From positions 1 through 35,306 of the forward strand of contig JAWOCH010000314.1 in the NCBI GenBank assembly GCA_046483865.1: DNA of 35,306 nt, written 5' to 3'. Positions 5,983-35,306 of the stretch are shown piece after piece. The stretch comes from Candidatus Brocadiia bacterium (GTDB taxonomy: Bacteria; Planctomycetota; Brocadiia; SM23-32). Numbering within the stretch: the stretch's first letter is position 1; each line of letters starts with the position of its first letter. A program made the translations under genes and the position numbers. The notes beneath the pieces were generated by a model. It was given only the letters and a program-made list of their open reading frames with translations. It searched no databases and had not been told where the DNA came from.

Positions 5983-8154
5983 TTACTCCGGTTCCAACTC
6001 GGCGCCCATAACGGTCACCGTCAGTCCTTCCAGCAGGTCGGGCTCGGAGATGCGGGCGACCGACACCCCCTGCCGCGTGCGCACGCTCAGCACCGGTATG
6101 CGCATCTCCTTCCAATCGGCCAGCGGCAGCAGCGGCACGTCCAGCGTGCCGCGCAGCGGGCGGAGCGTCAACTCCCCCTCCAGGCGGTTCAGCGACAGGC
6201 CCGCCGCGGCCATCGTCATGCCCAGCACCGTCGCCCCCCGCGGGTAGAAAGCCAGGTAGTTGCCCTCGGTCGTGTCGTAATAGAGCGACGCGCCCCAGCC
6301 GCTGCCGGTGGCCGCCTGGTAGTCCCAGTAGCGCCCCACGTTGTCCAGCATGTCCACTCCCAGGTAGGCGGCCACGTAGTCGCGCCACATGTTCTGGCTG
6401 AACCAGACGGTCCGGTCCGAGCCGCTGGAGTGGCGGCATCCGTAGGGAGTCATCGTCCGGCGGGCAGCGGTCTCGATGTCTCGCGCGAAGCGGTTCAGTT
6501 TCCATCGGGGCATCTTGAGCCCGGCCAGGAACAGGTAGAGCAGCCCGTTGGCCGTGTAGATGGAGTAGTCGTCCCAGCCTTCCAGCTCCTCCCCTTCCAG
6601 GGGCTCGCCGGTCCAGGGGTCGGTGAGGCCTTCGGTGCTCTTGTCCAGAACCACGGCGTAGTGGTCATCCAGCCAGGCGCCCTCTTCGACCGCTTTGACG
6701 CCCTTGGAGGCGGCGGCCCGCCAGCGCTCGGCCTGGGAGCCCTTGGCGCCGCAGTGCTGCTCCAGCTCCGCCAGGGCCCACAGGGCGGCCTGGGCCTTAA
6801 CGGCCAGGTAGGTCTGCTCCCGCCCGAACTGCACCGCCGGGCTGGCGTCGTCTATCGTGTTGGCCGTGCCCAGGTCGGGCACACCGTTGCCGCTGGTGTC
6901 GGCCTTCACCAGGAACTCGCCCAGCCGCCGGCACAGGTCCAGATGCTCCTTCGCCTTCTCCGTCTGCCCGGTGAAAGCAGTCCACGCGGCCAGCATCAGC
7001 AGGTAGTTGGCCGTTTCCTCCACTTCCATGTGGTGGGAGTAGACCTGGTGCCCGACCACGTGGTCTCCGCCCATGTCGTGGCACAGGAAGGCCGTCTTGT
7101 TGCCCTCCGCCCCGACCAGCTCGGCGGCGTCCACCTCGAACTCCGCCCACTCATCCAGCAGCATGCCCAGCAGTTCCGGCCACAGGGCGAAATACAGCAG
7201 CGCGTCGTTGTACTCCACGTCTATGGTCGAGTGGTAGTAGCAGAGCCCCTCCCAGACGCTGAACCAGTCGGAGCCGTCCTGGCGCACGGCCCACCAGGAG
7301 TCCGCAAGGAAGGAATGGAACGCCAGTGCCGACAGGTTTCCCCCCGCGCTGCCCAGAGTCCAGCTTCCGAACGCAACGTCCAGCATGTCGCATCGCTTCA
7401 GGATCTTCTTCCTGTGCTCGGCGGCCCAGGCGACCATTGCCTTGCGGGACTCGAACGCTTCCACGTACTTCAGCGTAGCGGGCTGATCGAAGACCTGGAG
7501 CACGGGTTCAGCTATCCAGCAGGACCAGATCAGCCGCATCCGCGTCTCGGGTTCCTCCGCCAGGTTGAACGCCAGCCGCAACTCCGCCGGGCCGACCCGG
7601 TCGCCTGACTCCGCTTCCACCCAGGTCGCAACCGTCACCGACTGGGGCGGCAAGTCGTGACGCGCGGGCGCATTGCTGGTGAACCGATAGCGAAAGCCGC
7701 CCTCGCCCCCGTCGAACTCCACGCCCTCCCCCCGCAGGCCGAATACCAGCTCCCCCTGTTCCAGAGGCGAATCGGGCTCGATGTGCCGGAACTCGCCCAG
7801 CCGCCGCACGGTCAGGTCTACGTAGTAGAACGGCGCCGTCGAGATGCGCACATTACGGGGGTAGAACGGCGCCCGGATCTCCAGGACGACCTCCAGGCCC
7901 AGAGCAGGATGCACGCCGCGGTAGCTTATGCCGGTCAGGGCAGCAAACTGCTCCACGAACGGCAGCGGCGTGGCCTCGGAGCTGAACGGCAGCGTCCACG
8001 TCTGGCCCTCGGGCGTGCGCACGCCGGCGACCAGCTCCAGGGGCTGCTCCAGGAAACGTCCCGTTGCATTCTGGTAGACCTTGCGGTCGTAAGGATGGAA
8101 GATCAGGTTGAAGCGTCCGCCAAGCGTAGCGGCGGCATCGGCTATCGGCTGCAT
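5983..8154 (-). CDS. Glycoside hydrolase-like protein, GH52-like (beta-xylosidase family) by motif resemblance
   Basis: Long ORF. Segments WFSVWEGLCYYHSTIDVEYND, AFLCHDMGGDH, HMEVEETANYLLMLAAW and GNGVPDLGTANTIDDASP parallel, from my memory, the conserved blocks of GH52 enzymes. Start taken at ATG 8154 (MQPIADAA...), which is preceded by a GGGAGGG RBS. The ORF-track start at 8295 lacks this support. Confidence 0.55.
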   Translation of the reverse strand: MQPIADAAATLGGRFNLIFHPYDRKVYQNATGRFLEQPLELVAGVRTPEGQTWTLPFSSEATPLPFVEQFAALTGISYRGVHPALGLEVVLEIRAPFYPRNVRISTAPFYYVDLTVRRLGEFRHIEPDSPLEQGELVFGLRGEGVEFDGGEGGFRYRFTSNAPARHDLPPQSVTVATWVEAESGDRVGPAELRLAFNLAEEPETRMRLIWSCWIAEPVLQVFDQPATLKYVEAFESRKAMVAWAAEHRKKILKRCDMLDVAFGSWTLGSAGGNLSALAFHSFLADSWWAVRQDGSDWFSVWEGLCYYHSTIDVEYNDALLYFALWPELLGMLLDEWAEFEVDAAELVGAEGNKTAFLCHDMGGDHVVGHQVYSHHMEVEETANYLLMLAAWTAFTGQTEKAKEHLDLCRRLGEFLVKADTSGNGVPDLGTANTIDDASPAVQFGREQTYLAVKAQAALWALAELEQHCGAKGSQAERWRAAASKGVKAVEEGAWLDDHYAVVLDKSTEGLTDPWTGEPLEGEELEGWDDYSIYTANGLLYLFLAGLKMPRWKLNRFARDIETAARRTMTPYGCRHSSGSDRTVWFSQNMWRDYVAAYLGVDMLDNVGRYWDYQAATGSGWGASLYYDTTEGNYLAFYPRGATVLGMTMAAAGLSLNRLEGELTLRPLRGTLDVPLLPLADWKEMRIPVLSVRTRQGVSVARISEPDLLEGLTVTVMGAELEPE

Positions 8155-24460: not shown

Positions 24461-24913
24461 TCAGTCCGCCCGGACGGCCACCTCCGCCTCGACCGTGACG
24501 CTCGTCTCCCCGTCCAGCGATCTGGTAATCAGGCAGGCGCTCTCCGCCTTCCCGATGGCTTCGCGCGCCGCCTCCACCTGCTCCTCGGCGGCGACGGTGA
24601 TGTCGGCCTGCACGGTGAAGTCCGAGAAGGACATGCCCCCGCTGCCCATCTGGAGCGTCCCTTCGCACTCCGACTGGTAGCTCTTCAGCTCCACGCCGGC
24701 CCGGTCGGCGTAGTAGAGGAACGTCAACATGATGCAGGTCTCCAGCGCCCCTACCAGCATATCCTCCGGGCTCCAGACGCCCTCGTGACCTTTGAACTCC
24801 GGCGGCGTGGCGACCTCCAGGTCGGGCTTGCCCTCAGAGGACAAGACGCCCCGGCGCTCCCGTTCCCACCGGACGGACGTGCAATACCTGTGTTGTGCCT
24901 TCCCCTGCGCCAT
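24461..24913 (-). CDS. OsmC/Ohr-family peroxiredoxin-like protein
   Basis: OsmC-like pattern: PPEFKGHEGVWSPEDMLVGALETCIMLTF...AESACLITRSL. Start chosen at ATG 24913 (MAQGKAQ...), downstream of the neighbouring gene's stop. Confidence 0.7.
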   Translation of the reverse strand: MAQGKAQHRYCTSVRWERERRGVLSSEGKPDLEVATPPEFKGHEGVWSPEDMLVGALETCIMLTFLYYADRAGVELKSYQSECEGTLQMGSGGMSFSDFTVQADITVAAEEQVEAAREAIGKAESACLITRSLDGETSVTVEAEVAVRAD

Positions 24914-24942
24914 CGGTTGTCCCCTTGCCTGCGCCGCGCTCG

Positions 24943-25470
24943 TTACCCCATGCCCAGCGAACTCTGGTCGCCGACGATCAACGCCCATTCCTTCCACAGA
25001 AACCATGCGGCGTTCTCGTTCAGGTACTCCAGCGTGTTCTCCAGCATCTCGTAGTGCTGGTTCTCCTCCCTGGACAGCCGCTCGAACAGGCGCCGGGTGT
25101 CCTCGTCCGCTGCGTCTTCGGCAGCCTTGACGTAGAGATTGTAGCTCTCCGTCTCCATCTCCATTGCCTGCTGAACGGCGTCCTTCTCGTCGCTGGTGAC
25201 CGCCCCCTGCTCGTCCGTCTGTTCGGCGGCCTCGGTGAACAAGGTGCGGATCTCGTCCCTGGGCATCGGCATCTGGTCAACGTCCACGCCGACGCCTTCG
25301 GCCAGATCCTTCACCACTCTCAGGTGGCGCCGCTCGTCGGCAGCAAAAGACTTGAACATCCTCTGCCCCGCCTCGGTCGCGCACATGCTGGCGAGCGTGG
25401 TGTAGAAATCAGCTCCGTCAATCTCCAGCTTCCGGGCCTTCTGGACCGCTTCCCTCAGTGCGTCGCGCAT
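24943..25470 (-). CDS. Ferritin-like diiron protein (rubrerythrin/erythrin-like, no rubredoxin domain)
   Basis: Two E...ExxH diiron motifs (LEIDGADFY...ADERRH and MEMETESYNLY...REENQH). Start at ATG 25470 lies 9 nt after GGGAGG. Confidence 0.7.
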   Translation of the reverse strand: MRDALREAVQKARKLEIDGADFYTTLASMCATEAGQRMFKSFAADERRHLRVVKDLAEGVGVDVDQMPMPRDEIRTLFTEAAEQTDEQGAVTSDEKDAVQQAMEMETESYNLYVKAAEDAADEDTRRLFERLSREENQHYEMLENTLEYLNENAAWFLWKEWALIVGDQSSLGMG

Positions 25471-25581
25471 TGGTACAGACCTCCCTCTGTGCATCGCTCG
25501 TTGCTATCTACCCCTCTTCCAGGCTACCGCCGCGGCGGCCTGCTGTCAAAAGCACACGGCCCTGCCGGCCGGCACTCCGCC

Positions 25582-25610
25582 TTGCGGCGCCCGCGCGACA
25601 TGCCTATAAT
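25582..25610 (+). promoter_or_regulatory. Sigma70-type promoter candidate for tRNA-Ala (TTGCGG-N17-TATAAT)
   Basis: TTGCGG at 25582-25587, a 17-nt spacer, then a perfect TATAAT at 25605-25610. This ends 14 nt before the mature tRNA 5' end. Confidence 0.55.
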
Positions 25611-25624
25611 GGCCCCTGTCAGGT

Positions 25625-25700
25625 GGGGACGTAGCTCAGCTGGGAGAGCGCGGCACTCGCACTGCCGAGGTCGAGGGTTCGAATCCCTTCGTCTCCACCA
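25625..25700 (+). tRNA. tRNA-Ala (anticodon CGC)
   Basis: 76-nt cloverleaf folded by hand. Acceptor GGGGACG/CGTCTCC carries the G3:U70 alanine identity pair. D arm GCTC-AGCTGGGA-GAGC. Anticodon arm CGGCA-CTCGCAC-TGCCG. T arm GAGGG-TTCGAAT-CCCTT. CCA is encoded. Confidence 0.95.
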
Positions 25701-25853
25701 CCTTCCCAAGCCCTGCGCCCCCTGGCGGAAGTGTCCGTCACCTCCCCGGAGTCCGGATAGACGGTCTTGGTCACCCTGTTGGGGTGTTTGGCGGCGCCGT
25801 AGTAGTAGCTGGTGTCCTGGTGATTCGAGCCGTCTTCCCACGCCTGGATGGAT

Positions 25854-27227
25854 TCACTCCAACCGCCCCCGCCGGAGCGGATCAATCAGTGTGAAGGTGA
25901 TGTCACCGTCCGTCCCCGAAGCTCCGCCGTTGTCAGTGAGATCCCCTCCTATGCTGTATATGACCATGCCCGTCGGCGTACTGCGGTACGAAACGGGTCC
26001 GCCGCTGAAAGGGTCTTGGGGTTCGGCGTCCAGGTACGCGGGCACTAGTTCAGCAACGGACTCAGGCCAACTCCCGTGTCGAAGCCGGTACCTCTCGGCA
26101 GCCACCGCTGCTGCGCCAACTCTCAGCCGCGCTACCACATGCACTCGAGTTGTCACAATTCCGGCAAGTTCCGCCTGCATCCAGGGGGGGCGCCAGTCAC
26201 GGGAAAGCTCGGTAGCCCAAGTGAGCTGCTCCCGCAACGGACGCTTCAACACGCGCAACGCCTCCGCAATAGCCCGAATCTCCTTCGCAAGCCGCATCTT
26301 CCCCACACCGGGAAGCCTTCTCTCCCACCATACACGACGCGCCCACCTGCTCTCCACTGGTGAGGAAAGTGCTTTGGTAAGCTGTTCTATGCGCTCTTGC
26401 GAGCTGGATAGTCCGTGCGGGCCAGCCCAATCTCTGGCGATGCTCCAGAGCGTACTTCGGGGCGAAGTCCAGGCCTCCGCTATCGCTAGGCAGCGTGCCA
26501 GAGCACTAAGCACTTGCGGCTCAAGCTCGGCACGGCCCAACGTTTCCTCCAACAGGGCGAAAGCATCGAACACGCTATTTGTGGTGCCCAGTACGTATGT
26601 GGCCGGCGCCCCTGCGTAAGCCTGACCACAGTTGAGCAGTGCGATAACGCCTTCACCCGTAATGCTCTGCTCAGGCGACGCTTGCTGCGCCAATTCCAGC
26701 CAGCGAATCCGGTAGAAGAGGGGGCCAGCTCCGCGGACAAGGGTCTCCACGAGTGGCCGTACCTCCTCGCCGGCGAATACGTTTTCGCTCCCGTCAGACG
26801 AACCAACACACTCCCCGTAGAACGGCTGGAGCAACAGCCGTAGCACACGATGCTTTTGCCGGTACTCCAGTAGCGCGTGAGCCGCGTCAACCGGAATTGC
26901 ACGCCCAACAGCGCGGAGCCCGGCGGTTTCTGGCACTCTCAGTTCTGATCCGCTCTCTCCCTCCAGCCACGCCATCGCAGCCGCGGCTGCCAGGCGCCTG
27001 CCGGCGTCCACCTCAGTTCCGATGGGCCTCACAGTCCGCCCGTGCTTGGGAGTGAGACGCTCGATCCGCTCACGCGCCTCCTGGAGACGAGAGTCTCCTA
27101 CGTAGCCTAGAACCACTAAGAACACGAGGAGGCATAGAGCGAGGACCGCCAGGACGTAACCGATCCCCGGCACAGCGTAGAGCAGCAGCCGCCGAGTCGC
27201 CCATTTCTGCGTCTTCCTGTCTCCCAC
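25854..27227 (-). CDS. Hypothetical membrane-anchored protein (457 aa) with pseudopilin GspG-like C-terminal motif; candidate Rhs-tip immunity/partner protein
   Basis: GTG start lies 8 nt after a GGAGGA that directly abuts the TAG stop of the Rhs tip (TAGGAGGAAGGGGCTGTG). There is an N-terminal TM helix (LLLYAVPGIGYVLAVLALCLLVFLVVLGYV). The C-terminus reads WPESVAELVPAYLDAEPQDPFSGGPVSYRSTPTGMVIYSIGGDLTDNGG. Confidence 0.65.
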   Translation of the reverse strand: MGDRKTQKWATRRLLLYAVPGIGYVLAVLALCLLVFLVVLGYVGDSRLQEARERIERLTPKHGRTVRPIGTEVDAGRRLAAAAAMAWLEGESGSELRVPETAGLRAVGRAIPVDAAHALLEYRQKHRVLRLLLQPFYGECVGSSDGSENVFAGEEVRPLVETLVRGAGPLFYRIRWLELAQQASPEQSITGEGVIALLNCGQAYAGAPATYVLGTTNSVFDAFALLEETLGRAELEPQVLSALARCLAIAEAWTSPRSTLWSIARDWAGPHGLSSSQERIEQLTKALSSPVESRWARRVWWERRLPGVGKMRLAKEIRAIAEALRVLKRPLREQLTWATELSRDWRPPWMQAELAGIVTTRVHVVARLRVGAAAVAAERYRLRHGSWPESVAELVPAYLDAEPQDPFSGGPVSYRSTPTGMVIYSIGGDLTDNGGASGTDGDITFTLIDPLRRGRLE

Positions 27228-27239
27228 AGCCCCTTCCTC

Positions 27240-27932
27240 CTAGGGATCACAGTCTAGCGGATTCCCCATCATTATCCCCTTAGTGGCGCCTTTGGCAGGC
27301 ATGTTATTATTCTTGCACTCAGCCTCGATGACCCCCACGTCATGCTCTTGCGCTCCAGCACCGATGTTCAAGTTGGTACAACCGGTGAAGGGCCCTGGTA
27401 TTGTTATACTGCTGTCCGGTCTGAAGTTCTTCCAGCCTATCAGTTTCTTCTTTCTGGCCACAGAATTGTTGGTCCACGCCTGAAACGGTCTGCCATCGCA
27501 GCAGCACTGCCAACGAAATGCCCCCTCACCCGCGAACACGCATACAGCCACACCGTGTATGGCCATGCCCAATCCAACGCTTTCAACCCCCACTGCGTGC
27601 AGTCGCCACTGGATATTCGCCCAGATGAGGCGGCAGCCCCTGCTCTTACAGGCTGCCAAGCCCAAGGGGTCTCGGCTGAAACTTGGACGCCCTTTCACGT
27701 ACTGGTACACATTCACGCCATCGGCGTATCGCGCGGGATCGCCGGAGACAAAGCGGCCAACGGTCACTGAGTACTGACGATTGCGGTAGTACATGAGGTC
27801 GGATTCGAGATCGAGGCGTCTCGCGGTGAAGGCGTAGGGGTTCTCTACGTCCGAGACTCCGTCCGAGTCGTCGGAGCCGTCGCCGTCCAGGACGGTGGCG
27901 GCGCCATACGCGTCATGCCGATAGCGTTCCAC
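27240..27932 (-). CDS. RHS-repeat-associated core plus novel C-terminal toxin-like domain (5'-truncated orphan Rhs tip)
   Basis: Rhs core hallmarks: YRHDAYG, NPYAFTARRLDLESDLMYYRNRQY, GRFVSGDP and NVYQYVKGRPSFSRDPLGL. A 138-aa Cys-rich tail follows (27243-27656). The same frame stays open upstream of the GTG as far as 28034 (..DRDGDLADTNEKVWYHSNTLHSVYALTDNSESVV..). No Rhs N-terminal body is present. Confidence 0.8.
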   Translation of the reverse strand: MERYRHDAYGAATVLDGDGSDDSDGVSDVENPYAFTARRLDLESDLMYYRNRQYSVTVGRFVSGDPARYADGVNVYQYVKGRPSFSRDPLGLAACKSRGCRLIWANIQWRLHAVGVESVGLGMAIHGVAVCVFAGEGAFRWQCCCDGRPFQAWTNNSVARKKKLIGWKNFRPDSSITIPGPFTGCTNLNIGAGAQEHDVGVIEAECKNNNMPAKGATKGIMMGNPLDCDP

Positions 27933-27981
27933 GACCGACTCCGAGTTGTCGGTGAGGGCGTATACCGAGTGCAGCGTGTTG

Positions 27982-28551
27982 CTATGATACCATACTTTCT
28001 CGTTCGTGTCGGCCAGATCCCCGTCGCGATCGTGTCAAGAGTGTTGTGTAAAAGGGGGCTGGAGGGCTTCGGCGCGCTGTGCGGCCGTAGCGCTGCTGTT
28101 GTAGCTTCCGCCAGACCAGGTAGGTGGCCCTCTCCAGGCTCCGAGCACTGGGGAAGATGCCCACCTTGCGGATCTTTTTGCTCAGCTCTCCTATGAAGCG
28201 TTCGATGGGGTTGGTGGTCTTCAGCCGCGCCCGTAACTGCGTCGGGGCGTTCAGGTAGGTGAGGGTGTCCTCAAACTCGTAGCTGAATCGCCTGACGGCC
28301 TCCGGCTCGAGCTGCTCCCACCTGCGGGCCCACAGCTTCAGTCGCCGCCGCGCCTGATACGGGGTGCGCAGGCCCTCGTAGATGGCCGCCGCTTCCGAGA
28401 GGATCGCCCCCCGCCGCGAGCGGTCCCGCAGGTGATCGGCGATGTTCTGGACCTTGTGGAAGATGCAGCGCTGTCTGGGCACCCGCGGCTGGACCATCCA
28501 GAGGGCCGCCAGAAGGCCCCCATCCCCATCGGTGACGATCGTCTCCAGCAC
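27982..28551 (-). pseudogene. IS256-family (Mutator-type) transposase, N-terminally truncated remnant
   Basis: TDGDGGLLAAL...QRCIFHKVQNI...TTNPIERFIGELSKKIRKVGIFPS matches the C-terminal half of IS256-family transposases. Upstream homology (..DYLTGRARYVLE) is interrupted by an in-frame TAG and runs into the TolC gene's 3' end by about 28646. About 200 N-terminal residues are missing. The last roughly 18 codons of the ORF-track ORF overlap Rhs-derived sequence. Confidence 0.75.
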
Positions 28552-28646
28552 ATAGCGGGCACGGCCGGTCAGATAATCCTACAGTCTCTGTTGACATTCG
28601 GCGCGGACGGTGCGAAGCTCGACCATCGGGGCGCCTGCCTCAGTCT

Positions 28647-30293
28647 TCAGTTGGCCTCCGGCCGGATCGGTGACCACCTGACGCGGCTCTCGCCCAAGAG
28701 CGCCCCGACGGCAAACGCCAGGTCCACCTGTGCTATCTGGTACTCCGCGACGGCCCGGATCTCGGCCGACTGCGCGTCGGCCAGTCGCGTTTGGGCCTCC
28801 AGCACCTCCGTCGAGGTCCGCAGGCCCAGCTCGAACTGCCGCTCTTCAGCGTCCAGCGTCCTGGCAGCCAGAATCGTGCCCTGCCGGCTGGCCAGTATCC
28901 GCTGCCAGGTGGCGTCGAGCTGGTCTGCGGCGTCGGCCACCTCCTGCTGGATCTGGGCGCTTCGCCGGGCCTGACTGGCCAGACGCTGCAGACGCGTGAA
29001 CACGGCCCGCCGCAGGCGGCTTCTGGCCAGCCGGTTGCCCAGCGGCACCGACAGGCTCAGGCCAACCTGATGGCTGTCGAACTCGCAGTCGCACATCAGG
29101 TCGAACGCGTCGCCGGGCGTATCCCCCAGCCCGGAGATGCCGTAGGTGTAATCAACAGCCACCAGTGGCAGTGTCTGGTTGCGCGCGAACGCCTCCGCGC
29201 TCTGGTCGGCGGCAATCTGCAGCTCCAGCTCCAGCATCTCCATCCGGTTGGTCAGGGCGAACTCCGTAAGCCGTTCGACATCCAGATGGTAGCGGACGGG
29301 ATCGGGCTCGGTGACCGGGATGACCTGCGTCGTTCCCCCGATCGAGAGGCCGGGCCGGTTCAGCACGCGTTTCAGTTCGCGCTCCCGGTCGCGCACGCGG
29401 TTATCGGCAATGATGATGCCCTCCAGGCGCTCGGCCACGCCGGCCTCGGCGCGGATCACCTCCACCTCCGCCGCCTCTCCGACATCGGCGCGTCTGCGGG
29501 CCCGGCCAAGTTGCGCGACAGCCAGGTCGTACTCGTTCTTGCGCACCTCCAGTTCGCGCCGTGCCGCATACAGCCGCCAGTAGACCCGTTCGACCGCAGC
29601 CAGCACGCGTATGACCTCGAGCTTCGTGCGGGCTTCGACCTGCTGAGTCTCGTAGCGGGCGATGCGGATCAGGTGCGTGTTCGTGCGGACGCCGGCGTCG
29701 CGCAGCAGAGGCTGGCTGATGGAGGCGGTCATGCTCGAGCCGTACGACGGGTTCAGCGTGGAGAAAGGGTCGCTGGTCTCCAGGCGATTGGCCGCGAGGT
29801 CGAAGACCACGTCGCCCCCCGTGCGCAACGGGATCCGCACCCCCAGGTCTCCCCTGTAGGACTTGCTTTCGGCGGCGCTCAGTTCGGTGGCCGTCGGCTG
29901 CTCGACTCGTGCGTAGGCTGCGTTGCCGAACAGGGCGGGCTCGAATCCAGCCTCGGCCTCGTTGACCGACTCGGCGGCGATCGCGGGGGCGCGGAGTTGG
30001 ACGTCCAGGTCCAGGTTGTGTCGTAACGCGCCAGCGCGGCACTCTTCCAGGGCAAGTTCCAGTCGCTCAGGCGGCTCCCCCGGGCCGGGGCGCGGCTCCG
30101 CTGGTTCCGGCGCGTCCGGTTCAGCCATGTCCTGCAGATCCACGGCGTCAATCTCCCGCAGCCGGCTCTCAGGGACCCGGAGCGTCATGAATCGGTCTTC
30201 ACTGAAGTAGCGGCGGCACCCGAGAGAGAGGCCAACGGCGAGAATGGGCAGCAGGACTGCAGCCGGGATGCGCTGCCAGGAGGATCTACTCAT
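28647..30293 (-). CDS. TolC-family outer-membrane efflux lipoprotein
   Basis: Lipobox LSLGC follows a signal peptide. The body has the long coiled-coil/beta-barrel repeat character typical of TolC/NodT proteins. ATG 30293 overlaps the permease stop by 8 nt; TTG 30308 is the ORF-track alternative. Confidence 0.8.
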   Translation of the reverse strand: MSRSSWQRIPAAVLLPILAVGLSLGCRRYFSEDRFMTLRVPESRLREIDAVDLQDMAEPDAPEPAEPRPGPGEPPERLELALEECRAGALRHNLDLDVQLRAPAIAAESVNEAEAGFEPALFGNAAYARVEQPTATELSAAESKSYRGDLGVRIPLRTGGDVVFDLAANRLETSDPFSTLNPSYGSSMTASISQPLLRDAGVRTNTHLIRIARYETQQVEARTKLEVIRVLAAVERVYWRLYAARRELEVRKNEYDLAVAQLGRARRRADVGEAAEVEVIRAEAGVAERLEGIIIADNRVRDRERELKRVLNRPGLSIGGTTQVIPVTEPDPVRYHLDVERLTEFALTNRMEMLELELQIAADQSAEAFARNQTLPLVAVDYTYGISGLGDTPGDAFDLMCDCEFDSHQVGLSLSVPLGNRLARSRLRRAVFTRLQRLASQARRSAQIQQEVADAADQLDATWQRILASRQGTILAARTLDAEERQFELGLRTSTEVLEAQTRLADAQSAEIRAVAEYQIAQVDLAFAVGALLGESRVRWSPIRPEAN

Positions 30294-31557
30294 GCCTGAG
30301 GGCCTCAATGGGGTCGAGCCGAGCTGCCTTGATGGCGGGGAACATCCCGAAGAAGATTCCCACGAATGCGGCGAAGCTGAACGAGACTGCGATGGCCCAG
30401 AGCGGGATGCTGGCCTTGTCCAGTTGGGCGTTCGGAATCTGAGCGATGGCCGAGGTCAGGAGCTGAGCGGCCACCACCCCGCCGGCACCCCCGACGAGGC
30501 ACAGTACGACGGCCTCGACCAGGAACTGCAGCAGGACGGCCGACGGACGGGCGCCCACGGCTTTGCGCAGGCCGATCTCACGTGTGCGTTCGGCCACCGA
30601 CACAAGCATGATGTTCATTATGCCGACGCCCCCGACCAGCAGGGAGATGCCCACAATGCCACCTGCGACGATGGTGATGGCGAGGGCCACCTTGTTGAAG
30701 TCAGCAAGGTGCTTCGCCATGGTCTCGACGCCGAAGTCGTTTGGTTCTCCAGGTTCCAGTCCCCGCGCACGGCGCAGGAAGAAGGTCAACTCAGCCTGGG
30801 CCTCGTCCGCCAGTTCGGTCTTCCGGCTGGCAGCGATGACCCACGTACCACCCCAGCGCTCGTTCGCTCGCCACGCCGTCGTGAAGGGAATGAACACCTC
30901 CAGCTTCTCCCGCCCGGTACCCGGGAAGGTCTCGGGCTCGTCCGGCTCTTCGATGACGCCGACGATGCGATGGGAGCGCCTGCCGAGGCGGAGGTACTCG
31001 CCGACGCAGTCACGGTCCAGGCGCAGCTCGTCGCGCAGCTTGGAGTCCACCACGCACACGGGGCGGGCCTGGGCGATGTCTATGGCCGTGAACGGCCGCC
31101 CTGTCTCCACCGGCCGGTTCTCGATGTCGTGCCAGGCCGGATCTATGCCAAGGACCTGGACGTCTGCGACCGAACGCTGACCCGACTGCACTGACCGCGG
31201 CAGACCGGTCACGCGGGTGATCTTGTCAATGGAGGGGCAATGCTGCAGCACGCCTTCCAGCAAACCGGGGGTGAAGCGGAGCTGCTGCCAGGGGTACTCG
31301 CTGTCGTCCCGACCTTCGGGCACTTCGGGATAGGCGTACAGCTTGTTCGTGCCGAAGGCCTCAAACTGGGACAGCACGTTCTGTCGCAGGCCCGTGAGCA
31401 CGGCGATGACAGCAGTGACGGAGGCGACTCCAATGAAGATGCCGATGGTGGTCAGCATGGCCCGGGCCTTGTTGCTCCAGATCTGTGCCAGCGCCAGCCA
31501 GACGCTCAACCAGAGCAGGCGCAGGAAAACGATCGGGAATCGGAGCAGACGGATCAC
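30286..31557 (-). CDS. ABC transporter permease, FtsX/MacB-type
   Basis: N-terminal NKARAMLTTIGIFIGVASV, a large periplasmic domain, and a C-terminal FtsX motif VAERTREIGLRKAVGAR. The GTG start overlaps the ATPase stop (GTGA) and lies 5-6 nt after GGGAGCG. The ORF-track start at 31992 is a spurious extension. Confidence 0.8.
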   Translation of the reverse strand: MIRLLRFPIVFLRLLWLSVWLALAQIWSNKARAMLTTIGIFIGVASVTAVIAVLTGLRQNVLSQFEAFGTNKLYAYPEVPEGRDDSEYPWQQLRFTPGLLEGVLQHCPSIDKITRVTGLPRSVQSGQRSVADVQVLGIDPAWHDIENRPVETGRPFTAIDIAQARPVCVVDSKLRDELRLDRDCVGEYLRLGRRSHRIVGVIEEPDEPETFPGTGREKLEVFIPFTTAWRANERWGGTWVIAASRKTELADEAQAELTFFLRRARGLEPGEPNDFGVETMAKHLADFNKVALAITIVAGGIVGISLLVGGVGIMNIMLVSVAERTREIGLRKAVGARPSAVLLQFLVEAVVLCLVGGAGGVVAAQLLTSAIAQIPNAQLDKASIPLWAIAVSFSFAAFVGIFFGMFPAIKAARLDPIEALRHE

Positions 31558-32336
31558 GGCTTCGCTCCCGCTTGCTGGGTGCCGTCGGACTGGGCGAGCC
31601 CGCCGTGGGAGGTGTTGGGCGGCTGCTGCGCGATGCGGGCCTGCAGACCCCGGTCCTCCTTGGCTGGCAGGTCGGAGTAGATACGGCCGTCCTTCAGCCG
31701 GACGATGCGGCGGGCGTGGGTGGCGACGTTGGCCTCGTGGGTCACCATGATGACCGTCTGGCCGTCGCGGTGCAGCTCGTCGAACAGGGCCAGGATGCCG
31801 GCGCTTGTCGTGCTGTCCAGGTTGCCAGTCGGCTCGTCGGCCAGCAGAATGGCCGGGTTGTTGACCAGAGCCCTCGCGATGGCTACGCGCTGTTTCTCTC
31901 CTCCCGACAACTGGTTGGGGCGATGCCCGGCTCGGTCGGCCAGCCCCACGCGTTCCAGAACCGCGCGGCTGCGTTTTCGCCGGCCCCACCATCCCGCGCC
32001 GGCATAGATGAGCGGCAGCGCCACGTTTCTCGCCGCGTTCAGGCGGGGCAGCAGCTCGAAGGACTGGAAAACCACGCCCACCCGCCGGTTGCGCACCCGC
32101 GCCAGCGCGCCGGCACCCATCTTTGTGGTGTTCGTCCCGTCCAAATAGTAGACACCGGCGGTCGGCCGGTCCAAACAGCCGAGCACGTTCATGAATGTGC
32201 TCTTGCCCGAGCCCGAGGGCCCCATGACTGCAACATACTCGTTCTCGTCCACCTGCAGCGATACGCCGTCCAGCGCGTGGATGCGCTCCACACCCATTTT
32301 GTACACGCGCTCAACGTCCTGGAGTTCGATCAGCAT
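31554..32336 (-). CDS. ABC transporter ATP-binding protein (MacB/LolD-like)
   Basis: Walker A GPSGSGKST, signature LSGGEKQRVAIARAL, Walker B ILLADEPTGNLD. Start at ATG 32336 (MLIELQDV...); GTG 32342 is an alternative. Confidence 0.85.
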   Translation of the reverse strand: MLIELQDVERVYKMGVERIHALDGVSLQVDENEYVAVMGPSGSGKSTFMNVLGCLDRPTAGVYYLDGTNTTKMGAGALARVRNRRVGVVFQSFELLPRLNAARNVALPLIYAGAGWWGRRKRSRAVLERVGLADRAGHRPNQLSGGEKQRVAIARALVNNPAILLADEPTGNLDSTTSAGILALFDELHRDGQTVIMVTHEANVATHARRIVRLKDGRIYSDLPAKEDRGLQARIAQQPPNTSHGGLAQSDGTQQAGAKP

Positions 32337-32358
32337 GTCCACCAGATGTCTCGACGGA

Positions 32359-33723
32359 TCACGGTTCAGTGGCCTGCTGCAGGTCGGTCTCGGCACCCCT
32401 GGTCTTCTCGCGCTCGGCCTCGCGCTCATCGCGCACTTTCTGCTCGTGCTTGAGGCCCTCCAGCACTTTGTAGGGGCCGACTATGATGTGGTCAGTCTCG
32501 GTGATGCCCCCCAGCACGACAGTGTGCGTCTCGTCGCTCGGTCCGACATCCACAGGGGTCACCACCGCTTTGCCGTCCATGATCCGGTAGACGACCGTCG
32601 TGTAGGTCTTGTCGGCGTCCAGGTTGGGGTTGTTTTCGCGGATCTTGAGAGGCACTTCATCCACCCGGCGCGCCAGGATGGCCTGGGTGGGCAGCCTGAG
32701 CACGTCGCGATGGTAGCGTGTTTCGATCTCCGCCTCCGCGGTGGATGCGCAGGGCACGCGGCGGCCGTCCAGCTTCAGCAGGATCTCGGTCTCGTAGTAC
32801 CTGCCGCCCTGCTGCGCCACGTCCGCACTCAAGGCTATGGTGTCCACGGTCCCCTCGAACTCCTCATCGGGACAGGCGTGGATCTTGCCCTGCACTCGCT
32901 GTCCGACCTCGATCCGCCCGACGTCCCTCTCGTGCACCTCGGCCACCAGGAGCATCTTCGACAGGTCGGCCACCTCGATGATGACCGTGCCCGGGTTGTT
33001 CATGGTCCCGGGTATGACCGTCTCCCCCACCTCGGCGTGGACGCGGGTAACCACTCCGGCGAGGGGCGAAGCGATTGTCGTGTAGCTGAGGGCGTCCCTG
33101 GCGCGCTCGACTTCGGCCTCCGCCGCCTCCAGGTTGGACTCCAGCACTTCCAGGTTCAGTTCAGAGGCGCGCAGTGTTCGCCGGGCGGATTCGAGCCGGG
33201 CCTCCAGCTCCTTCACACGGCTCTCCACCAGGTCCACGTCCGCCTGGCTGACGTCGGCCGATTCCAGCAGCGTTCGCTTACGCTGCAGGTCCCTTCGGGC
33301 CTGGATCAGCGTTGCCCGGGTTCCCTCGATAGCCGCGCGCTGGCCGGCCAGCCTGGCCTGTTCCACCTCTATCTGGGCGGCCCGTGCCGCCCTGTGCGCC
33401 TCCGCCGAGCGCAAGGCGGCCCGCAGGTCGGTTGCGTCGAGTTCGACCAGGACGGAGCCCCTGGACACCTCGTCGCCCTGGTCGTAAGGTAATTCGTCGA
33501 TCCGCGCGGAGACCCGCGCGCTGATCTCCACCTTCGTCTTCGGTTCCACTTCCCCTTCGGCGCTGACGGTCTCGGTCAGGTCGCCCCGCTCGGGCCTGGC
33601 GACGCGGACGAGTTGCGGTTCCGACTTCCTGAGGCCGCCCCTGGACACGAACCACAGCCCCACGCCGGCAATGGAAACAGCGGTCACGATGAACGTCACC
33701 ACGGCGGTTACCAGGACTCTCAA
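32359..33723 (-). CDS. HlyD/MacA-family periplasmic adaptor (membrane fusion protein)
   Basis: N-terminal TM, a lipoyl-like domain (GEVEPKTKVEISARVSARIDEL...GDEVSRGSVLVELD), a long coiled coil and a beta-barrel domain. TTG start lies 5 nt after GGGAGGGAGGGG. Confidence 0.8.
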   Translation of the reverse strand: MRVLVTAVVTFIVTAVSIAGVGLWFVSRGGLRKSEPQLVRVARPERGDLTETVSAEGEVEPKTKVEISARVSARIDELPYDQGDEVSRGSVLVELDATDLRAALRSAEAHRAARAAQIEVEQARLAGQRAAIEGTRATLIQARRDLQRKRTLLESADVSQADVDLVESRVKELEARLESARRTLRASELNLEVLESNLEAAEAEVERARDALSYTTIASPLAGVVTRVHAEVGETVIPGTMNNPGTVIIEVADLSKMLLVAEVHERDVGRIEVGQRVQGKIHACPDEEFEGTVDTIALSADVAQQGGRYYETEILLKLDGRRVPCASTAEAEIETRYHRDVLRLPTQAILARRVDEVPLKIRENNPNLDADKTYTTVVYRIMDGKAVVTPVDVGPSDETHTVVLGGITETDHIIVGPYKVLEGLKHEQKVRDEREAEREKTRGAETDLQQATEP

Positions 33724-34182
33724 ACGCCCCTCCCTCCCGGCCGCGAGACAAACTCAGGCCACCCACGGCCATTCCTCTGCCGCGTGCGGGCTCCAGACAG
33801 CCCCGCTGGCGCTCGCCGCAGTTCCTATGTACGGCTTGATGCGGCGTTCAATGGCCAGTCGCGCACGCGACGTTAGCGGCTCCTGCCGGGCGGCCGGCTG
33901 CACCGGCGCCGCCGCGCAGAACCGCGCCCGCCGGGCAAGCTCCCGGCGCGGTTGAACACTGCTGCGGATCTGGCGTTGATCGCCGGTGGCGGGGGGCCTC
34001 CACGCAGCCCGAGGCTACCCGGGTCAAGCCAGTCCGAGCGCGGCGGGTGCCAGCCTCGAGCCCGCCGCTCCCCGCCCACGGCACGCATGAGATACTCCGA
34101 TTCGCAGCCACTGTCAAGGGGCTCCCCCCGGTCCACCCGCACGCCCCGGCCAACTGCGCGTCTCGGCTCCGCAGCATCCCAT

Positions 34183-35306
34183 CTACTGATCCTGCTCTGG
34201 CTGGGACATCCCCGCAGGAAGCCAGTCGCTCAGACGCTCAACTCGCTCTGCTTCGCGCCGGGTGACTTCATTGGCTGCGGCTGCCGTGCGCATCACGTGC
34301 GGGGTGATGAAGGCGATCAGCTCCGTCGTGGTCAGGATCGTGTCCTTCTTGCTGAACAGCAGGCCCACCAGCGGTATGTGCCCCAGGATGGGCACGCGGT
34401 TGACGGTCTCGCTCTCGTTCTGACGGAAGATACCGCCAATGACTATCGTCTGGCCGTCTTCCACCGCAAGCTCCGACTCGAACGTGCGCGTGTCCAGGAT
34501 GAACCCGCCGAACAGCACCTCGCCAGGGCGGATCTGCGAGGATTCCACCTGGATTTCGGTCACCACGTTGTCTTCCTTGTTGATGTGTGGGGTGATGACC
34601 AGCTTGGTGCCTACCTCGCGGTACTCAAAGGCATCGTTGCGCGCCGTGGTGCCGGGTTCGCGCTGGGTCTCGGTGATGAACGGCACCTCGGCGCCGACAA
34701 ACACGGTGGCTTCCCGGTTGTTGTTGACGCTGAGGGACGGCTCGCTGACGATGTGGGCGTCGAACTGGCGCTCCAGGAACTGCACGAGCGCGGAAACGTC
34801 GAAGTCGGCCGTCAGCACCGTGTCGGTGGTGATCTCCTCCCAGGCCACGCCGAAGTTGCTCAGCAGACCGTTGTTGAAGTCATCGGTCTCGAAGATCGTC
34901 GAATCGGACGTCCAGCGCGTGCCCACCCGCGTCTCGTCGGTGCGGGTAAGCTCCACCAGCCGGACGCGCAGGAGCACCTTCGGCGACTCCACGTCCAGTT
35001 GCTCGATGAGCTGGCGCAGCACGTTGAAGTGCTGCACGGAAGTGGTGATCAGCAGGGCGTTGATCCGGGAGTCGGGCACAACACGGACTTTGCCGATCAA
35101 GTTGCTGATGGGACGCTCCTCTTCCTGCCCGCGCTGGCCGCGCATGCTCAGCAGCCATGAGTAGTATGCCTGCTGGGCGTCTTCGTCGCCCTCCCTGTCC
35201 GGACGGGCTACTCCCGGCGGCGCGAACAGGGTGTTGAGCCGGTCCGCCAGCTCCACAGCGTCAGCGTGTTTGAGCTGGTAGACCAGCGTGTTGGCGTATT
35301 CGGGCG
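34183..35306 (-). CDS. Secretin (type II/III secretion system GspD/PilQ family), 3' part; 5' end lies beyond the window
   Basis: Secretin C-domain: VPFITE..., RVPILGHIPLVGLLFSKK, ELIAFITPHV. The frame stays open to the window edge (..YANTLVYQLKHADAVELADRLN.. is a secretin N-domain-like segment). Confidence 0.85.
   Translation of the reverse strand, partial: PEYANTLVYQLKHADAVELADRLNTLFAPPGVARPDREGDEDAQQAYYSWLLSMRGQRGQEEERPISNLIGKVRVVPDSRINALLITTSVQHFNVLRQLIEQLDVESPKVLLRVRLVELTRTDETRVGTRWTSDSTIFETDDFNNGLLSNFGVAWEEITTDTVLTADFDVSALVQFLERQFDAHIVSEPSLSVNNNREATVFVGAEVPFITETQREPGTTARNDAFEYREVGTKLVITPHINKEDNVVTEIQVESSQIRPGEVLFGGFILDTRTFESELAVEDGQTIVIGGIFRQNESETVNRVPILGHIPLVGLLFSKKDTILTTTELIAFITPHVMRTAAAANEVTRREAERVERLSDWLPAGMSQPEQDQ

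Follow-up and report, generated by a model that had tools for sequence, protein, structure and literature searches.

The contig examined here is a 35,306-nucleotide stretch from the genome of a Candidatus Brocadiia bacterium (contig JAWOCH010000314.1 of assembly GCA_046483865.1), and this whole stretch is called the window below. On its reverse strand, the end of an Rhs gene carrying a cysteine-rich, toxin-like tip is followed immediately by the gene for a 457-amino acid (aa) protein, which we call P0001. P0001 is a candidate immunity protein for the domain encoded by the tip. The principal features of this cassette are listed with their window positions and strands.

25854..27227 (−): P0001 gene, 457 aa with a GTG start, coding for the candidate immunity protein (open reading frame and translation)
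25857..26192 (−): C-terminal GspG/EpsG-fold domain, residues 346–457 (112 residues; model, Foldseek and hhalign)
26196..27017 (−): all-alpha repeat body, residues ~71–344, predicted to be extracytoplasmic (12 helices in the model)
27096..27188 (−): single N-terminal transmembrane anchor, residues ~14–44, with the basic 13-residue N-terminus on the predicted cytoplasmic side (hydropathy and modelled helix)
27228..27242 (−): junction, comprising the TAG of the Rhs fragment and a 12-nt spacer (direct reading of the sequence)
27243..27653 (−): Cys-rich toxin-like tip of 137 aa with 9 Cys residues, located after DPLGL (rare family, two remote homologues)
27654..28034 (−): Rhs core remnant, last ~125 residues (TIGR03696, E 1.9e-16)

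The two genes are closely coupled. The GTG start of P0001 is positioned 12 nt past the TAG of the upstream Rhs frame, and the reverse complement of positions 27225–27242 reads TAG-GAGGAAGGGGCT-GTG. An AGGAGG sequence overlaps the upstream stop codon, and its end is 8 nt before the GTG. A previous sequence-only reading of this locus had described a fused stop codon and ribosome-binding site with a 12-nt gap, and direct inspection of these 18 positions agrees with that description. GTG is the only sensible start codon for P0001, since ATG is absent from the first ~85 codons. An open reading frame of 574 codons on the opposite strand (24895–26619, +) has no family match and was taken as a spurious by-product of DNA with 67% G+C.

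P0001 has a sole strong hydrophobic segment at residues ~14–44, where 19-residue hydropathy (KD19) peaks at 3.1. Five basic residues precede this segment, and the AlphaFold model places one long helix across residues 5–58. Hydropathy and model thus both support the single N-terminal transmembrane helix proposed in the sequence-only reading. By the positive-inside rule, the protein is predicted to adopt an N-in/C-out topology.

The full-length AlphaFold model of P0001 (pLDDT 83.8, pTM 0.85) consists of the anchor helix, the all-alpha body (~71–344), a long helix (348–384), and three strands. Searches with the whole protein gave no specific match. The full-length model compared against the Protein Data Bank (PDB) with Foldseek returned generic helical repeats alone, at E>0.1. 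Whole P0001 matched nothing in Pfam or NCBIfam (Pfam at E<=1), and models for HEAT, ankyrin, and TPR repeats likewise found no match in it. PDB sequence searches with P0001 singly and with family profiles yielded nothing significant, with GspG (2kep) reaching no better than E 0.48.

A pseudopilin match surfaced only when the tail of P0001 was modelled separately. Residues 346–457 modelled alone have a pLDDT of 93.7, and the eight best PDB matches of this model are all Vibrio major pseudopilins of the EpsG/GspG type (4lw9, 3fu1, 3gn9), with Foldseek probabilities of 0.99–1.0 and TM-scores of 0.51–0.59. With hhalign, a C-terminal profile of the protein family to which P0001 belongs (described below) also aligns with the genome's own four GspG proteins (probability 88%, E 3e-6), and the register covers the helix and the DPxG...Y...YS.G.DG..GG motif. 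These two results confirm the GspG-type C-terminal signature that had been proposed from the sequence. Three aspartates in a loop of the tail (D429, D432, and D442) are nearly invariant across the family; in EpsG, the corresponding loop binds calcium.

P0001 was considered as a true pseudopilin, and this possibility was ruled out since the protein lacks both a prepilin leader and a PF08334 match. It begins with VGDRKTQKWATRR and continues into a generic hydrophobic helix, with no leader of the G/FTLxE type. In contrast, GFTL[IV]E is present in all four true GspG proteins of the genome. A whole-genome search with PF08334 found four other genes, and P0001 was not among them. What P0001 shares with the major pseudopilins GspG/EpsG/XcpT (3fu1, 4lw9, 3gn9, 2kep) is the combination of a long helix with a three-stranded sheet and the motif DPxG..Y...YS.G.DG..GG. 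Unlike GspG, it has neither the prepilin leader nor the conserved N-terminal hydrophobic segment and no match to PF08334; its pseudopilin-fold domain caps a membrane-anchored part of 345 residues, and its gene is located outside any gsp operon.

The frame upstream of P0001 is a 264-codon stop-to-stop fragment (27240–28034, −) that is closed at position 28035. It contains the final ~125 residues of the Rhs core, then DPLGL, which ends at residue 127 and corresponds to the PxxxxDPxGL-type motif found before variable tips, and finally the 137-aa tip. What the sequence-only reading had called Rhs does include the Rhs-core end and the tip, but only as an orphan fragment behind the remnant of an IS256 element. 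The cassette is a stranded tip with its partner, not a working Rhs gene.

The recurrence of this pairing was examined in relatives. About 70 matches to the P0001 family and about 60 matches to the Rhs core were located in 40 related genomes, and their positions were compared. Besides the window, exactly one Rhs/family adjacency was recovered, on contig C99 of genome G408, which belongs to the same taxonomic family and to another genus. There, a truncated Rhs frame of 677 codons with RHS repeats ends in a Cys-rich tip that is 24% identical to the window tip over its full length and shares Cys, Trp, His, and His-Asp columns with it (best BLASTP segment, 29% over 58 aa, E 1e-4). An ATG follows 51 nt after this tip, behind AGGAG, and opens a protein with a basic N-terminus, one membrane helix, and a long helical body. 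The tail of this protein matches P0001 (BLASTP, 32% over 167 aa, E 8e-16) and the family hidden Markov model (HMM; E 2e-22). Both adjacencies involve the same rare toxin family, and the condition that the sequence-only reading named as refuting its view, namely that homologues of P0001 never neighbour the toxin domain elsewhere, does not hold in view of the G408 locus. That both genes have stayed intact at only 24–32% identity argues for selection on the toxin/partner pair.

The toxin family is indeed rare. The window tip as a query found no match in an index of 5.8 billion proteins, nor in 132 genomes of the class, 400 genomes of the phylum, and two metagenome scans. Profile searches covering the 132 class genomes, the 400 phylum genomes, and another 80 genomes contributed a single extra member, in genome G016, plus noise matches with stop codons. 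The family therefore has three members in roughly 600 genomes sampled. The G016 member (contig C396, 7–1406) is an orphan Rhs tip that aligns on the same Cys and Trp columns and is the most distant of the three. Its partner is encoded a few bases downstream and is a helical protein of ~195–248 aa with an N-terminal membrane helix. Two of the three tips are thus paired with a member of the P0001 family, and all three with an N-terminally membrane-anchored protein.

The G408 locus (L083, 5046–9662) has further content. It comprises two truncated Rhs frames with different tips, between which lies a 261-aa open reading frame (7206–7991) that by eye resembles a REP/IS200-type (Y1) transposase. A DUF1559-like prepilin-type gene is present farther downstream on the same contig (1799–2746).

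On its small contigs, the source assembly (3.41 Mb in 457 contigs, 88% complete) contains 12 further matches to the Rhs core stretch. Over this stretch, the best-matching ones are 73–81% identical in protein sequence to the window fragment, and each then continues into a different tip. Five tips were checked (contigs C237, C247, C289, C160, and C179), and each precedes an exported or anchored protein: an FGE-sulfatase-domain protein of 560 aa, a HEAT protein of 541 aa, an ankyrin protein of 576 aa, a lipoprotein-like protein of 331 aa, and a protein of 438 aa. Most proteins behind the other Rhs tips have an N-terminal hydrophobic segment. Immunity proteins with HEAT and ankyrin repeats have also been recorded for planctomycetes (Zhang et al. 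2012, PMC3482391). In light of these large proteins and of the HEAT and ankyrin immunity types, the size of P0001 is not unusual. The sequence-only reading had called 457 aa atypically large, a view that does not hold for the phylum, nor in a genome where other Rhs tips precede exported proteins of 330–576 aa.

Elsewhere in this genome, contig C428 carries an Rhs tip followed by a 181-aa protein with four membrane helices. At least 10 Rhs tip fragments are found on small contigs, each with a different tip. This looks like a fragmented and rich repertoire of Rhs orphans in a planctomycete metagenome-assembled genome. No type VI sheath gene was found in the 88%-complete genome.

Three additional features lie within or beside the cassette.

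25625..25700 (+): tRNA-Ala(CGC), which borders the islet, 150 nt beyond the P0001 gene
27271..27298 (−): weak sigma-70-like −35/−10 match in the last part of the toxin frame, ~45 nt upstream of the P0001 start codon (9/12 positions, consensus match only)
27982..28578 (−): C-terminal half of an IS256-family transposase, which truncates the Rhs frame (PF00872, NF033543)

The transposase remnant matches positions 225–374 of the 379 in PF00872 (E 1.4e-20) and positions 188–334 of the 338 in NF033543 (E 3.4e-26). Past it is the stop codon of a TolC-like gene that belongs to a MacB/HlyD/TolC cluster. From the translations, by eye, the region 28647–35304 (−) encodes a TolC-like/MacB-like/HlyD-like export cluster and then a secretin-like gene that leaves the window end. 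Two sigma-70-like sites were found versus 0.5 expected, as consensus matches only. The one at 27271..27298 is a possible promoter for the P0001 gene; the other, also weak, is at the start of the Rhs remnant (27984–28012, −).

The composition of this segment differs from that of the genome. G+C is 0.59–0.635 across positions 25001–28000, which hold the tRNA-Ala, P0001, and the Rhs tip, versus 0.673 for the genome, a drop that would fit an islet of DNA that is foreign or evolves fast. G+C at third codon positions (GC3) is 0.667 for P0001, 0.65 for the toxin tip, 0.685–0.758 for other tip-linked genes, and 0.77 and 0.85 for two P0001 paralogues on contig C301 of the same genome. The long open reading frames of the genome have a mean GC3 of 0.77 with a standard deviation of 0.11, so the difference seen for P0001 is a weak signal. 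The islet is missing at the corresponding places of G401, a genome of the same genus, where the TolC gene is followed by an unrelated exported protein of 1039 aa and the tRNA has other neighbours. Because both flanks have other neighbours in G401, the islet is specific to the source genome. A simple insertion at the tRNA was considered and is not demonstrable, as G401 is rearranged on both sides and contigs end there.

P0001 belongs to a very large protein family, which it matches over its full length (family HMM, E 1.8e-82, profile positions 11–465). Members share a layout of membrane anchor, alpha-solenoid, and pseudopilin-fold domain, and the match in the P0001 tail includes the family pattern AAERYR...WP...DP..G.P...YS.G.D..D.GG. 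Word-index homology searches gave 4–5 matches and were dominated by low-complexity candidates, whereas an exhaustive profile search exposed the family. At E<=1e-3 it returned 42,059 cluster representatives, of which 3,953 also pass E<=1e-30; the majority are 450–530 aa long and match end to end. None of the members looked up has a name, and neither Pfam nor NCBIfam has a model for the family. Among 41 loci from reference genomes, 39 are from Planctomycetota (Gemmataceae, Phycisphaerae, and Pirellulaceae) and the other two are from Hydrogenedentota.

Tandem arrays of 2–5 copies are common among family members. For example, loci L020, L046, L038, L053, and L032 (Gemmataceae/Phycisphaerae) show arrays of three to five paralogues, with other members fused after ABC-2 permeases or bearing a HAAS domain. 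The ABC-2 permease fusions are proteins of 1,100–1,200 aa. Additional neighbours are heterogeneous and include ABC ATPase, VanZ, transaldolase, GARS, and squalene synthase genes, among others. The source genome has two other full-length members, arranged in tandem on contig C301 (L097, 184–8115) between a LolA-like gene and a convergent pair of ABC-2 permease and ABC ATPase genes. This context hints at a role for the family in the envelope or in lipoprotein transport. The C301 copies thus show the typical family context (tandem arrangement with an ABC-2 neighbour or fusion), and P0001, which stands alone behind an Rhs tip, does not. The idea that the family is generally linked to toxins was rejected, as an Rhs core occurs within 6 kb of 0 of 44 family loci. 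Given the ABC-2 neighbours and fusions and the lack of Rhs near these loci, this is an envelope family, probably with a connection to ABC-2 transporters, rather than an immunity family.

P0001 itself is an outlier within this family. It has no orthologue even in the same genus, where the best matches cover only residues ~330–455. In a tree of the C-terminal domain, P0001 has a branch length of 1.31 and the G408 partner one of 2.02, and the C301-type copies group in a clade of short branches that tracks the relatives.

With moderate confidence, we read P0001 as the periplasm-facing immunity protein of a new toxin/immunity pair that has been stranded as an orphan cassette. Several observations lead to this reading. 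The genes are coupled across 12 nt with AGGAGG at ideal spacing; a rare toxin family adjoins the same protein family in G408; all three toxin homologues directly precede N-terminally anchored proteins; orphan cassettes retain a tip together with the tip's own partner, and five other tips of the genome have the same layout; and P0001 combines a long branch, no same-genus orthologue, a tip-like GC3, and an islet that is missing in G401. The candidate immunity protein of the sequence-only reading gains support from the recurrence in G408, and the predicted topology and the tail agree with that reading, but its Rhs gene is an orphan, its size is usual, and its family is mostly free of toxins.

Some findings weigh against an immunity function. 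The cassette has no evident delivery part. Among the longer relatives of P0001 are ABC-2 permease fusions and proteins that include a HAAS domain and are encoded next to a PadR gene, the neighbours of the family are diverse, and none of the 44 loci has an Rhs core inside 6 kb. The homology between the window and G408 tips is remote, as it rests on a single-comparison E of 1e-4, on Cys/Trp/His columns, and on their place behind an Rhs core. The G016 partner has no detectable similarity to the P0001 family (hhalign probability 0.5%), and partners may have been replaced within one toxin family. Finally, a clade of P0001 with the G408 partner was neither found nor rejected (approximately unbiased [AU] test, p = 0.249), and with this value independent recruitment and common descent are indistinguishable.

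One alternative is that P0001 is an ordinary member of the envelope family, with a role in ABC-2 function or envelope biogenesis, that plays no part in immunity and resides beside or hitch-hikes with an Rhs remnant. In a family of this size (42,059 representatives at the looser threshold, 3,953 at the stricter one), a few adjacencies should arise by chance. Its members usually occur away from toxins, in tandem arrays of 2–5, with ABC ATPase and ABC-2 permease genes next to them or as ABC-2 permease fusions. Against this, both adjacencies involve one toxin family with only 3 members in roughly 600 genomes sampled, and just 12 nt separate the toxin frame from the P0001 start, where a Shine-Dalgarno sequence overlaps the toxin stop codon. 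The long branch of P0001, its atypical codon composition, and the lack of a same-genus orthologue also set it apart from ordinary members, and we judge this explanation unlikely.

The conserved adjacency would also be expected if P0001 were an accessory to the toxin rather than its inhibitor, such as a periplasmic chaperone or a docking or maturation factor for the disulfide-rich tip. A periplasm-facing helical repeat is a generic scaffold for binding proteins, and as a type VI sheath gene was not found in the 88%-complete genome, export may need other envelope parts. Known adaptors and chaperones of Rhs proteins, of the Eag and DUF4123 types, nonetheless go with the N-terminal portion of Rhs, and their genes lie upstream. 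Cassettes that have been reduced to the tip retain the immunity gene downstream, and the other tips of this genome share the layout of a tip followed by an exported binder. An accessory function therefore strikes us as improbable.

A different possibility is that the cassette is a decaying relic in which both frames are open by chance, without expression or function in this organism. An IS256 remnant, itself incomplete, cuts off the Rhs frame, the P0001 gene is preceded by just a weak promoter-like match, and the islet is missing in the same-genus genome. Against this, a stop-free frame of 457 codons in DNA with 63% G+C matches its family at E 1.8e-82, and the P0001 model has a high-confidence fold. 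Moreover, orphan immunity genes are commonly retained because they protect cells against their neighbours. We judge the relic explanation improbable. Very improbable is a variant of the immunity reading in which P0001 is a decoy derived from the toxin's own target, such that the toxin would hit the periplasmic face of ABC-2-linked machinery served by C301-type paralogues and the fast-evolving P0001 would soak up the toxin.

If the immunity reading is correct, then P0001 would be the cognate neutralising partner of the Cys-rich toxin domain encoded directly upstream. It may have originated by duplication and fast divergence from a housekeeping envelope family of Planctomycetota whose ordinary members are found with ABC-2 transporters. 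An IS256 element and later deletions would have truncated the Rhs gene, such that the cassette lost its delivery part. The single N-terminal helix is predicted to insert P0001 in the cytoplasmic membrane, leaving a cytoplasmic stub of 13 residues and placing a body of ~410 residues in the periplasm, where an alpha-solenoid would be capped by the pseudopilin-fold domain. This body (the solenoid, perhaps with the cap) could bind and block an incoming toxin of the same family. The toxin is presumably disulfide bonded. Its 9 Cys residues, together with the membrane anchors on the partners of all three homologues, suggest that it acts at the membrane or within the periplasm. P0001 would then protect against related toxins of neighbours even though the cell no longer delivers its own.

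An orphan Rhs tip with an immunity gene is a well-known kind of system. The arrangement in the window resembles the orphan rhs-CT/rhsI modules of Enterobacteria (Salmonella, E. coli, and Dickeya), in which the end of the Rhs core and DPxGL are followed by a variable tip and then by a co-oriented gene. As in those modules, several fragments per genome share a core stretch, and there is no delivery part. Unlike the small cytoplasmic partners of the orphan rhs-CT/rhsI modules, the partner here is a membrane-anchored protein of 457 aa. The toxin and partner families are also undescribed, and a type VI sheath gene was not found in the planctomycete host.

Two other groups of immunity proteins are informative for comparison. 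Imm-HEAT and Imm-Ank (PMC3482391) are large all-alpha repeat proteins that bind toxins, as is proposed for P0001. In contrast to these, P0001 has no HEAT, ankyrin, or TPR match; its anchor in the membrane and its pseudopilin-fold cap are further differences. That survey of polymorphic toxins does not contain the word 'pilin'. The periplasmic or lipid-anchored immunity proteins of type VI systems (Tsi, Tai, and Tli) place the neutraliser in the compartment of the toxin, as would be the case here, where all three partners are anchored. As a rule, such type VI proteins are either lipoproteins or small and soluble. The toxin compartment in the present system is predicted only from Cys content and partner topology.

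What is new is that neither protein family had been described, that membrane proteins can end in a GspG-fold head as their C-terminal module, and that P0001 comes from a very large undescribed family. An immunity function for P0001 would add a new immunity architecture (anchor, alpha-solenoid, and pseudopilin-fold cap) and a new Cys-rich toxin family to Rhs polymorphic toxins, which have barely been studied in Planctomycetota. The pseudopilin head fold, for its part, is put to use here outside pilus-like fibres, in otherwise ordinary membrane proteins. When these genomes are annotated, a large exported repeat protein that follows an Rhs tip should be regarded as the product of a candidate immunity gene and not as unrelated cargo. 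The decoy reading, if true, would identify the target of a new toxin class and provide a first functional handle on thousands of undescribed envelope proteins. More generally, a family with at least 3,953 clusters (E<=1e-30) represents a sizeable blind spot in the envelope biology of planctomycetes, and its Rhs-linked offshoots offer an entry point that is tractable by experiment.

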